Positions 32,697 through 34,954 of a DNA stretch of 64,000 nt are shown here, piece after piece; position 1 is the first letter of the stretch, and each line of letters starts with the position of its first letter. Source of the DNA: Escherichia phage PBM-2; the sequence record PV029541. The stretch is one strand, 5' to 3'. The position numbers were made by a program, and so were the translations under genes. The notes under the pieces are model-generated. The model had not been told where the DNA came from. It was given only the letters and a program-made list of their open reading frames with translations, and did not search any database.

Positions 32697-32867
32697 ATGA
32701 ACAAATTTACTATTCACTGGCTCAATGGAAAGGTTAGTTCTTTCGTGGGTGGAGAACCTGTTGAAGGGAACAAAGCATTCCACATTGATTCAGAAGGTTG
32801 CAAAATCTTAATACCATATGCTTGGTATAAAGATGGTGAAGTAAAGGCATTAAAAAAGAGTAGTTAA
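32697..32867 (+). CDS. small hypothetical protein (56 aa, below track cutoff)
   Basis: Hand-translated MNKFTIHWLNGKVSSFVGGEPVEGNKAFHIDSEGCKILIPYAWYKDGEVKALKKSS; AACGAGG RBS 7 nt upstream of ATG. Confidence 0.3.
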   Translation: MNKFTIHWLNGKVSSFVGGEPVEGNKAFHIDSEGCKILIPYAWYKDGEVKALKKSS

Positions 32868-34331
32868 TATCGTGAAGGGTTCTGTTAGAATCCTTTGAGA
32901 TAGGAACTCCTATCATAACCTTTCTTAACTTAATCTTTGCCGTATGGCACTGACGCTAGGGGTGGACCCCCATCCGTCAGACAGACTATTTTAAGAATTG
33001 GTTATCACAGCAAATGTAAAGCAACATTCGGGTTAATCAATGGCCTCTCCCTATAGGGGCCATTTCTGAATCTTAGGCTATATCCCAAAGGTTAGTATCT
33101 TTAGGATAAGGCTTCAGATCCCTTATCAAACTAACCGCTCAATGTTGAGCATTCTAATCACATAAGCCCCTATATGGGCTGGGTTAAATGTCGGATAGCC
33201 TAGCTACCTACAACATCGAACTGTTAGATCTTACATGCAATATAGGGTATAAAGGGAGGATTCGTCCCCTCCCCCCTATTATGGGCTATCAGTGAGTGCA
33301 TTAGTTGATTAGCTGTGGAAGGTAGGCCGATGTCCACAAGCGTGGCCCAGAGCTAGTGTACTCTTTGATAGTTTTCGTAAGCGATTATGCGGTTTTTTAG
33401 AAACGAACCAATAACATAAATGCAAACGATGATGTTGTTCTGATGGCAGCCTAATAAGCCAAGCGTCAGTCAGGAGTGAGTCGTCCTGATTATCAAACGA
33501 CCGTGGAGTGTCCCCGTCCATGTATTAGAAACGGGGAGTTAATCAATGGTATGTGATAGCTCAAATAGGTAGAGCGTGAGGCTACAGTGCTGAATGGTTT
33601 GTGGGTTCGATTCCCACCCATGCCTACAGTCCAGACGATATCTGAGTGACTATAAAAACAGATGGAGCCAGGTGGAATCCCTGGCAATTAATTCCGGTGT
33701 AGGTACTAGTGTCGTGCACGGCATGAGTGTTCTGGTTCGAGTCCAGACGCCGGAACCAATTATCAGTTGCACGAGATGGCTTGACATGTTCAAGTTTGGA
33801 CTAAGTGTGACACCGCTAGATTGGAGGGCTGCTGCGGTAAGCTATAGACTCCAACCGGAGGTTCGAATCCTTCACTGATAACCAATTCAAAGTAGCATTG
33901 TATATTTAAATGTTTCCCGGCATTTAAAGCACCCACCGTGACAGTGCTACTCTAAATTGGAAGAATTATGGGGGTAAGTCGTAACCATACGACGGCGTAA
34001 GTACCAGATGAGACTTCTGGACGCCCCTACCATATTTGAGGTGTAACAGTTAAATCCAGTTGCCGGAAGTGCAATTCTAGATACGCTGCCAATGTGTGAA
34101 CGGTAAGGCTGTACAGGACTCGGACTCCCACCTCAAACCAAAGTCGCCAGGTACTTATGGCAAACGGGTAGTAACGAACTAGTCATTCGTCAAACGCCCA
34201 ACCCAATTATGAGTCAGCAAGAACGCCTTCACTTAAACTTAAACAAAAAAGCTTAACGCAATAATTATGTAGGGGTATGTAAGGATTGCGAAGAAGGAGC
34301 CAGTTAGAGTCTGGCATGACTCACCTATTAA

Positions 34332-34407
34332 TACCCGGTAGGCTTAGTGGTAAAGCCCCACTAGTAAACCAACTAGGACGCAGGTTCGAATCCTGTCCGG
34401 GTAACCA
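34332..34407 (+). tRNA. tRNA gene (anticodon not resolved; CCA encoded; approx. coords)
   Basis: Perfect 7-bp acceptor stem tacccgg/ccgggta, D-arm ggct-tagtggtaa-agcc, T-arm gcagg-ttcgaat-cctgt, discriminator A then CCA; anticodon arm folds only as ctagt/actag with a 6-nt loop, so possibly aberrant. Confidence 0.5.
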
Positions 34408-34413
34408 TATTAT

Positions 34414-34487
34414 GTCCGCTTAGCTTAGACTGGGAAAGCAACCGACTAATAATCGGAAAGTCACTGGTTCAAATCCAGTAGTGGACA
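34414..34487 (+). tRNA. tRNA gene, hand-folded anticodon AAU (needs confirmation; approx. coords)
   Basis: Acceptor gtccgct/agtggac (one G-U), D-arm gctt-agactggga-aagc, anticodon stem accga/tcgga with loop ctaataa (U33, A37), T-arm actgg-ttcaaat-ccagt. Confidence 0.55.
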
Positions 34488-34731
34488 CCCATTTAGCAGT
34501 AACATAGTCCTGATTGCATCGCACTCTAAAGACAACACTGGTAAGACAGTCCAGTGGCTGCTATTGTATTGTTATTCCCTTCGACGGGAATTTCGCTGGA
34601 GAATAGGAACTCCTTAAATCCTAGCCTGAGTAATTACCACAGGAACGGGACTATCAATCCCAAGCCTGGTCAGCGTGGACTGTCTTCGTGGTAAGAACCA
34701 AAAGCCTCCCAGCTATGGGTAAATAGTACTA

Positions 34732-34768
34732 AGTCCCCTGGAGCCGTCACTCTGGGGGACTTTTTTAT
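34732..34768 (+). terminator. rho-independent terminator after tRNA region (approx. coords)
   Basis: agtcccc...gggggact stem followed by ttttttattt. Confidence 0.5.
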
Positions 34769-34795
34769 TTGAGTATTAATAATTGGATAATCAAT

Positions 34796-34954
34796 ATGAT
34801 TGACCTAATCTCAACCCCGTATGCCTATGAGGTAACGGATAATCGAGGACGCAAGTCTTTGGTGTTTGCAGGTAGCGTAGCCTATAACAACGCAGTCATG
34901 TTTAAGTACAAACTCAAACCACTCTATGAGGCTAATAATGGCAACAGTAAGTAA
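34796..34954 (+). CDS. hypothetical small protein (about 52 aa)
   Basis: Track ORF 34769..34954; internal ATG at 34796 more plausible; first gene after the tRNA terminator. Confidence 0.3.
   Translation: MIDLISTPYAYEVTDNRGRKSLVFAGSVAYNNAVMFKYKLKPLYEANNGNSK

Follow-up and report, generated by a model that had tools for sequence, protein, structure and literature searches.

The locus and the element

The stretch of DNA analysed here, 64,000 nucleotides (nt) of Escherichia phage PBM-2 (record PV029541) and hereafter called the window, contains at positions 33761-33884 an element that resembles a transfer RNA (tRNA) with an oversized body. Comparison with its relatives shows this element to be a conserved, structured, tRNA-shaped putative RNA gene that lacks an anticodon. 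It lies in a stretch of ~1.9 kilobases (kb; 32868-34796) that is poor in open reading frames (ORFs), between small early/middle genes and gp48/gp49-like genes, with all of the flanking genes on the plus strand. The ~1.3 kb around the element are 100% identical to Escherichia phage PBM-3 (PV053165.1, reverse complement), a Gamaleyavirus and G7C-type N4-like phage of the Schitoviridae; in the family comparisons, the label PBM-3 stands for the sequence of the window element. As consensus scans place one promoter-like site (32864-32891) at the start of this stretch and one strong intrinsic terminator (34731-34762) at its end, the stretch looks like a single array of tRNAs and non-coding RNAs (ncRNAs), in which the longest ORF has at most 94 amino acids:

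32864..34762, plus strand, ORF-poor tRNA/ncRNA array, promoter-like site to intrinsic terminator by consensus scans only

The GenBank annotation of PBM-3 lists three tRNAs only in this stretch, and 33761-33884 carries no feature. ARAGORN, which the initial annotation had put forward as a check, finds two tRNAs only in the window, both downstream of the element, and makes no call on the element itself.

The outer parts of the element are as first noticed and can be read directly from the sequence: a 7/7 acceptor stem (TATCAGT 33761-33767 with ACTGATA 33874-33880), a canonical T arm (GGAGG 33857-33861, TTCGAAT 33862-33868, CCTTC 33869-33873), a discriminator A at 33881 and an encoded CCA at 33882-33884. 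With 124 nt in all, the body is indeed oversized, by ~45-50 nt beyond a tRNA. The parts are as follows, with sequences given as RNA:

33761..33884, plus strand, whole tRNA-like RNA gene, 124 nt with encoded CCA; covariance model R1 (see below) 136.8 bits, E = 5.5e-33, exact coordinates
33761..33767, plus strand, acceptor stem 5' strand UAUCAGU, pairs with 33874-33880
33768, plus strand, U8, invariant, directly after the acceptor 5' strand
33769..33772, plus strand, D stem 5' strand GCAC, 4 base pairs (bp), pairs with GUGU 33805-33808
33773..33778, plus strand, start of the D loop, GAGAUG, invariant; by position G13, A14, G15, A16
33779..33795, plus strand, hairpin inserted in the D loop, GCUUGA-CAUGU-UCAAGU; different sequence, same position in every lineage
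33798..33804, plus strand, GGACUAA motif, invariant in all members; G33805 then opens the D-stem 3' strand
33812..33816, plus strand, pseudoknot stem S1, 5' strand ACCGC, with GCGGU 33834-33838, inside the S2 loop
33821..33826, plus strand, pseudoknot stem S2, 5' strand UUGGAG, with CUCCAA 33849-33854, where a class II tRNA has its variable arm
33855..33856, plus strand, CC between S2 and the T stem; the last C is C in 18/18 aligned sequences
33857..33873, plus strand, T arm GGAGG/UUCGAAU/CCUUC, read from sequence
33874..33884, plus strand, acceptor 3' strand ACUGAUA, A33881 and CCA 33882-33884, read from sequence

Judged by position and by tRNA structure, the invariant nucleotides would be those that build the core and the elbow of a tRNA, through the contacts U8-A14 and G15-C48 and through G18G19 meeting the T loop. 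The C that directly precedes the T stem fits C48, and the GG of GGACUAA is the candidate equivalent of G18G19. A second register of the D stem, in which C10-G13 pairs with the YGUG after the GGACUAAG motif, was rejected, as it gives 7 mismatched cells against 3 for the register listed and shows no covariation. An anticodon arm, that is, a 5-bp stem closing a 7-nt loop, is not conserved in any lineage, and its region is instead a covarying H-type pseudoknot.

The earlier suggestion of a tRNA with a small insertion falls short of this structure: the extra length is made up of two modules, a 17-nt hairpin in the D loop and an H-type pseudoknot that replaces the anticodon arm and the variable region. 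This, together with the finding that no Rfam family, intron families included, matches the element, led us to discard a group I intron as well as a simple insertion into a tRNA. In the scan of the window with Rfam 15, the element had no match at gathering or at permissive (E <= 10) thresholds; the tRNA model RF00005 left it unmatched even at E <= 10, and the models for transfer-messenger RNA (tmRNA; RF00023, RF01849-51 and RF04321) had no match on it, reaching only T-arm fragments of other units with 15-16 bits.

Conservation and covariation

A 136-nt query is 91-100% identical in 42 phage records, from Gamaleyavirus and from Klebsiella Kaypoctavirus KP8 and its relatives, in which the element is unannotated or lies under spurious protein calls only. 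This conservation lies inside an otherwise mosaic region and, together with covariation, rules out the chance pairing that the initial annotation had left as a possibility. In a first alignment of PBM-3, Bp4 and three KP8-like phages, the acceptor stem TATCAGT/ACTGATA stands against TACTGGT/ACCAGTA of the KP8-like phages, with three double changes. The D-loop hairpin is GCTTGA/TCAAGT in PBM-3 and GCCTGG/TCAGGT in KP8, and the T stem is GGAGG/CCTTC in PBM-3 and GGGGG/CCCTC in Bp4. The expectation that a real element would keep its secondary structure among homologous phages is borne out by these compensatory changes.

A broader alignment of 18 sequences (A5), hand-fitted to the proposed structure, structure-padded and left gapless by MAFFT, was used for pair counts, in which the cells are not independent events because the sequences are related. 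Of its 621 cells, 93.1% hold standard pairs, compared to 35-43% after a shift of the 3' partners by 1-3 columns; 33/38 pairs show double-sided change, and the observed values were reached in 0/500 column shuffles. An earlier 15-sequence alignment gave the same covariation picture. By helix, the acceptor stem has 96% of cells paired with double-sided change in 7/7 pairs, and the D stem 95.8%, its third pair being A:U, C:G or G:C in equal numbers, by lineage. The D-loop hairpin is paired in 100% of cells and covaries in 6/6 pairs, the T arm in 96.7% with 3/5 pairs covarying, and S2 in 93.4% with double-sided change in 8/9 pairs. S1 is the least regular (80.6%), with five good inner pairs that each show 3-5 pair types among lineages.

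The pseudoknot stems have unrelated sequences between lineages. In L059, S1 is GCAGAU/AUCUGC and S2 CUGGG/CUCAG; in L047, S1 is AUGCUG/CGGCAU and S2 CUGGAGGAU/AUCUUCUGG; in L083, S1 is CACUGA/UCAGUG and S2 CUUUGGCG/CGCCGGGG; in L018, S1 is CAUGAGC/GCACGUG and S2 UCGAGCUGU/ACAGU-A-UCGA; and in L106, S1 is CUAAC/GUUAG and S2 GCCCG/CGGGC. When the 47-51-nt bodies of four independent lineages were subjected to dinucleotide shuffling, a contiguous pseudoknot of the same topology arose in 5/400 shuffles for PBM-3, 1/400 for L047, 3/400 for L059 and 0/400 for L083. RNAalifold, which cannot represent pseudoknots, recovered the acceptor and T helices with covariation, plus a D-type helix, from an unfitted MAFFT alignment. 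On this alignment it would also pair GGACUAA with AUGGC, i.e., the two D-loop motifs with each other, and neither side ever varies.

Conservation of sequence, as distinct from shape, is confined to U8, G9, the GAGAU and GGACUAAG motifs of the D loop, the C just 5' of the T stem, the T loop and the discriminator A. GAGAUG does not vary in alignment A3 or A5, 14/18 aligned sequences have A as discriminator, and GGUUCRAWUCC occurs in all members, a motif that three of the five scans that retrieved them required. The acceptor-stem pairs vary freely across the family; pair 3:70 is U:A, C:G, U:G, A:U or G:C, and never G:U.

These data bear directly on whether the element could be a decoding tRNA of odd shape, with the 4-nt loop L1 (UAGA) of the pseudoknot, for example, or an alternative fold serving as anticodon. 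The tRNA core, A73 and CCA are conserved, L1 reads UANA in most lineages, and further odd tRNAs occur in the array, of which one has a 6-nt anticodon loop and another A34. Against this, the middle bases of L1 vary (AGA, ACA, UCA, AUA) and L1 measures 7-10 nt in other lineages, and the structure that covaries is a pseudoknot. As no lineage has a 7-nt loop closed by a conserved 5-bp stem, the RNA cannot decode normally, and we regard a decoding role as very improbable.

A family in phages and prophages

Scans with the most conserved internal motifs (GAGATRGC and GGACTAAGYGTGA, plus the T loop) brought up divergent relatives in viral contigs, among bacterial genomes in three Serratia species, and in metagenomes, with GGACUAA as the motif that retrieved the family. 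A covariance model (R1), built from an ordinary MAFFT alignment, gives 50-137 bits to members of the family and 13-35 bits to ordinary tRNAs, a gap of more than 15 bits. In total, ~10 divergent lineages have one architecture in common, 122-144 nt long: an acceptor stem, U8, a 4-bp D stem, a D loop of the form GAGAY..hairpin..GGACUAAG, the interleaved S1/S2 pseudoknot, a T arm and A73. All helices of this GGACUAAG family plan are present in the PBM-3 sequence. The lineages are:

Lineage A, N4-like phages
Lineage B, L013, L019, L060, L101 and L107
Lineage C, L018, L023 and Serratia
Lineage D, L022, L061 and the cultured lambdoid coliphage mEp390
Further lineages, L047, L059, L083, L106 and L109/L126
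Weaker candidates, L049, L068 and L069

The CCA is encoded in groups A and C, in the mEp390-like L061, and in L047 and L059; it is not encoded in group B or in L022 (ACUA). The mEp390 copy (NC_019721 36453-36577; L135 3401-3525) is unannotated and lies between the spanin genes and a glycosyltransferase moron. Outside the N4-like phages, no tRNA/ncRNA array surrounds the members, which sit in HK97- or lambda-like prophages between the lysis cassette and the HNH/terminase genes of the late region. Among N4-like phages the element is fixed in the G7C/KP8 group, and in lambdoid prophages it is a non-array gene. Directly 3' of the L013 copy lies a hairpin with a T run that was called by a terminator scan, and similar hairpin-plus-T-run sequences were read by eye 3' of other prophage-type copies. 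A sigma-70 consensus scan upstream of the L013 and L035 copies found no promoter; -10-like boxes can be seen by eye, for which no promoter is claimed. A conserved ORF of ~77 amino acids, without a Pfam match, lies directly upstream of the element in L022, L061 and L047.

The group D form occurs in 4/5426 complete E. coli genomes and is unannotated under the match in 4/4. BLAST searches with groups B and C against the phage collection, and with group B against the E. coli genomes, gave terminator matches or none. ARAGORN and Rfam scans (the latter at gathering and at E <= 10) of KP8 and four family loci assigned the element to no family; the family is absent from Rfam 15, and all phage and E. 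coli records listed are unannotated under the match. Full-text literature searches on phage tmRNA-like RNAs, N4-like tRNA-like RNAs and tRNA-mimic decoys yielded no description of it.

A decaying tRNA pseudogene, or an arrangement that arose by chance and has no function, would fit the rejection of the element by tRNA finders, its ordinary single-sequence folding energy and the rarity of the group D form in E. coli genomes. It does not fit the near identity over 42 phages within a mosaic region, the covariation of six helices over ~10 lineages or the separation of the family from tRNAs by R1, and these comparative data refute, for practical purposes, this explanation, which we consider scarcely tenable.

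The adjacent tag module

Upstream of the element, at 33375-33545, lies a module with a template that resembles the tag of a tmRNA, ANDDVVLMAA. The tag at 33422-33451 and its stop codons at 33452-33457 read GCA AAC GAU GAU GUU GUU CUG AUG GCA GCC UAA UAA, in a tmRNA-like upstream context. The module has sub-threshold matches to Rfam tmRNA models, and within 33375-33545 there is no start codon in frame and no detectable tRNA-like domain. Its structures include a hairpin at 33470-33489 and a pseudoknot of 33502-33507/33517-33522 and 33511-16/33532-37; in some N4-like phages, the 3' pseudoknot of the module has 13 stacked bp and ends in A-CCA, resembling an acceptor-arm mimic of the turnip yellow mosaic virus (TYMV) type. 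Homologous tag modules occur in 554 phage records from unrelated families. The tag always has 10 codons, with conservative or synonymous changes (ANDDVVLMVA, ANEEAYLMVA, ANDNAYLMVA, ANDDLMMVAA), and an AUG frame that overlaps it is not conserved.

The element might accordingly belong to a split phage trans-translation system, as its acceptor half, with the adjacent tag RNA as the template half. The tag template looks real in its fixed length, its conservative or synonymous changes and its lack of a start codon, the module's sub-threshold tmRNA matches point the same way, the element contains a pseudoknot as tmRNAs do, and in KP8, L017, L103 and L133 it lies directly 3' of the tag module. The element, however, owns a complete acceptor stem, without G3:U70, and no tag reading frame with a resume codon is found within 33761-33884. 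The pairings that would join the two RNAs fail in KP8. A ~600-nt tmRNA-like molecule closed by an upstream UAUCAGU (~33288) was rejected, as this alternative acceptor 7-mer does not covary with the 3' strand of the element, KP8 having UAUCAAU there and ACCAGUA as its 3' strand; pairing of loop L2 (GGCUGCU) with the end of the tag (GGCAGCC) was rejected likewise, the complementarity being lost without covariation. Global alignment of the KP8 tag module plus element with E. coli ssrA shows similarity around the tag and in part of PK2 only. Family loci of the prophage type have no tag module within the DNA examined, and the siphophage Sa179lw, with an identical tag, has no tRNA, tmRNA or family member in its whole 46.8-kb genome. 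Since the element has its own acceptor stem, the candidate pairings between the two RNAs do not covary and each RNA occurs without the other in the DNA examined, we take them to be separate modules, and a split system appears quite improbable.

A processing signal had also been considered in the initial annotation. In its strict form, the element would be a processing handle only, which recruits RNase P and 3' trimming to free neighbouring RNAs, including the upstream tag RNA, and has no function of its own. In keeping with this, the element lies in an array of back-to-back tRNA-like units with one promoter-like site and one terminator, and in the four loci in which it directly follows the tag RNA, the 3' pseudoknot of that RNA terminates in A-CCA followed by 2-4 nt; the position after the tag RNA is held in PBM-3 by another tRNA-like unit. 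Relatives are found outside arrays, however, in prophage late regions and in one case followed by a scan-called terminator; the encoded CCA and A73 are retained; and the D-loop hairpin and pseudoknot, needless for an RNase P substrate, are kept by compensatory change in every lineage. Processing may be one role of the element in the N4-like array, yet it cannot be the whole story because the non-array relatives keep both the hairpin and the pseudoknot, and we consider an RNA that is a handle and nothing else unlikely.

Other units of the array

The unit at 33547-33626, which adjoins the tag module in PBM-3 and in phiMAM1, is tRNA-like and is labelled "tRNA-Cys(ACA)" in GenBank. Its anticodon arm is irregular and carries A34, its acceptor stem has 6/7 pairs, and it receives no ARAGORN call in the window; ARAGORN does call the Bp4 copy and a 92-nt relative in phiMAM1. 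A 66-nt mini tRNA-like unit follows at 33693-33758. Its acceptor stem has 7 bp (TCCGGTG/CGCCGGA), and it has a T arm, A-CCA and one central hairpin in place of the D and anticodon arms; its folding z is -2.36, and its KP8 copy is annotated as tRNA-OTHER. Further downstream lie a tRNA with a 6-nt anticodon loop (34332-34407; 'tRNA-???' in ARAGORN, 40.7 bits in Rfam) and a tRNA-Ile with anticodon AAU, i.e., A34 (34413-34491). A34 is uncommon in bacteria except in tRNA-Arg.

Directly 3' of the element, a long-range helix joins 33891-33900 to 33942-33951 (AGUAGCAUUG/CAGUGCUACU) and covaries with KP8 (AGAGUACUG/CAGUGCUCU), which indicates a further putative structured RNA module of the array. Just 5' of the tag-bearing RNA, a minihelix-like piece at 33245-33292 (AUAGGG..GGGAGG-AUUCGUCC-CCUCCC..CCCUAU) looks like an acceptor-plus-T-arm fragment without CCA. 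The 15-mer AUGUAGGGGUAUGUA (34266-34282) is also found in the siphophage Sa179lw (L009 ~1600-1620), in the 3' part of its ~480-nt tag-bearing non-coding region, which hints that more of the array may be shared modular ncRNA.

Comparison with known RNAs

The closest resemblance is to class II tRNAs of bacteria and phages, and especially to tRNA-Ser, which share with the element the acceptor stem, U8, a GAGAU-type start of the D loop, the D-loop GG, C48 and the T arm, and have a long variable arm just 5' of the T stem, where the element has S2 (6-9 bp in the family). The ordinary tRNAs that score best with R1 are class II, mostly tRNA-Ser (35.2, 34.2, 31.8 and 29.9 bits). Unlike a free class II variable arm, the loop of S2 is locked into S1; the element has no anticodon arm or loop, its would-be anticodon-stem 5' strand pairing into the variable-arm loop instead; it has the D-loop hairpin, one nt between the acceptor and D stems, and the greater length of its family; and in contrast to tRNA-Ser, it has A73 instead of G73 and no serine anticodon. 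The simplest evolutionary reading is that the mimic descends from a tRNA of class II whose anticodon-stem 5' strand would have re-paired with the variable-arm loop, leading to deletion of the anticodon loop.

The 'TLD-only' tmRNA of mycobacteriophage DS6A, named for its tRNA-like domain (TLD) and reported to be an inhibitor of host tmRNA, is like the element phage-encoded and non-decoding, with an acceptor stem, a T arm, CCA and pseudoknot content (PMC4131195, PMC11915505). Compared to the tRNA-like domain of tmRNA, the element lacks G3:U70 and a tag frame and has a true D stem. Species 1 RNA of phage T4 (rnaC) is likewise the product of a stable-RNA gene in a phage tRNA cluster and longer than a tRNA, and its 3' ~90 nt, read from sequence, contain an acceptor stem (CGGAACG/CGUUUCG) and a T arm (CCGGG-UUCGAAU-CCCGG). 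As a homologue it was rejected: R1 gives it 22.8 bits, like the ordinary T4 tRNA-Leu (21 bits), and its body is different, with an anticodon-like hairpin and with neither the GGACUAAG motif nor a pseudoknot.

Plant-virus tRNA-like structures (TLS) of the TYMV type and mascRNA-type elements are recognised by RNase P, the CCA-adding enzyme and synthetases without decoding. Plant-virus TLS share with the element a tRNA mimicry built on a pseudoknot. A TLS stands at a genome's 3' end and has its acceptor arm built by the pseudoknot, whereas the element, a discrete small-RNA gene of a DNA phage, has an ordinary acceptor arm and a pseudoknot in place of the anticodon and variable arms. In its presumed working, the element is akin to a broader class of tRNA mimics, which includes the DS6A RNA, TLS, mascRNA and the stable RNAs of T4, and its architecture is unlike all of them.

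A proposed tRNA mimic that would not decode

With moderate confidence, we propose from these comparisons that the gene encodes a stable non-coding tRNA mimic that would be unable to decode and would act through its acceptor and elbow on a protein that is blind to the anticodon. The RNA would be transcribed as part of the 1.85-kb array, cut by RNase P at U33761, trimmed at its 3' end to the encoded CCA (or, in group B, provided with CCA by addition) and folded into an L shape; features that fit RNase P and tRNA maturation are a U at -1, a 2-nt spacer after the ACCA of the preceding unit and the encoded RCCA. Less securely, the acceptor and elbow end would be the acting part, bound by a protein that recognises tRNA without its anticodon. 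An anticodon-independent tRNA-recognising protein is the most likely partner because only the acceptor/elbow is conserved in sequence, the body being conserved only in shape.

Of the possible versions of this proposal, we prefer one in which the RNA serves as a decoy or competitor, harmless to translation, of an enzyme that targets the acceptor end of tRNAs, a suggestion that we put forward tentatively and consider rather doubtful taken by itself. Alternatively, it may be a substrate of an anticodon-independent synthetase. The identity of alanine tRNAs is G3:U70, so the lack of this pair means that the element is not of alanine type. In E. coli, the discriminator of tRNA-Ser is G73 and tRNA-Leu has A15-U48; A73 therefore argues against E. 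coli serine identity, and G15-C48 against leucine.

Several observations weigh against the mimic as proposed. No synthetase identity fits cleanly, given the lack of G3:U70 together with A73 and G15-C48. Pfam searches of the small ORFs that flank the prophage copies found HNH endonuclease only and no common partner, and no protein gene conserved next to the copies points to one. S1 has a competing local hairpin in group D (L022, L061), and the hand fitting of the pair-count alignments A3 and A5 biases them towards the proposed structure. The minimum free energy of the element is unremarkable against shuffled sequences (z = -0.17); because its folding energy is no better than theirs, the case for the element being real rests on comparison.

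Implications for phage biology

Phage tRNA genes are usually read as helpers in codon usage or as replacements for tRNAs destroyed by defence systems. The family described here fits neither usual reading, as it keeps the acceptor and elbow that tRNA enzymes see and has lost the part that reads codons. As unrelated phages maintain its architecture through compensatory change, a tRNA mimic that stays out of translation appears to be, by itself, of use to a virus. More speculatively, and in our estimation unlikely, such RNAs could form a dedicated phage and prophage class of anticodon-less, pseudoknot-locked mimics, matured with a CCA end that is kept or added and possibly aminoacylated like tRNAs, that would act as decoys for or antidotes to host enzymes attacking or modifying the tRNA acceptor end, or would capture an anticodon-independent synthetase or elongation factor Tu (EF-Tu). 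If true, phages would here possess a counter-defence or takeover device of a new, RNA-based kind. The annotation of N4-like therapeutic phage candidates currently overlooks the family, and its presence in cultivable coliphages (G7C-like phages and mEp390) makes the ends, charging, partners and phenotype of these RNAs directly testable.

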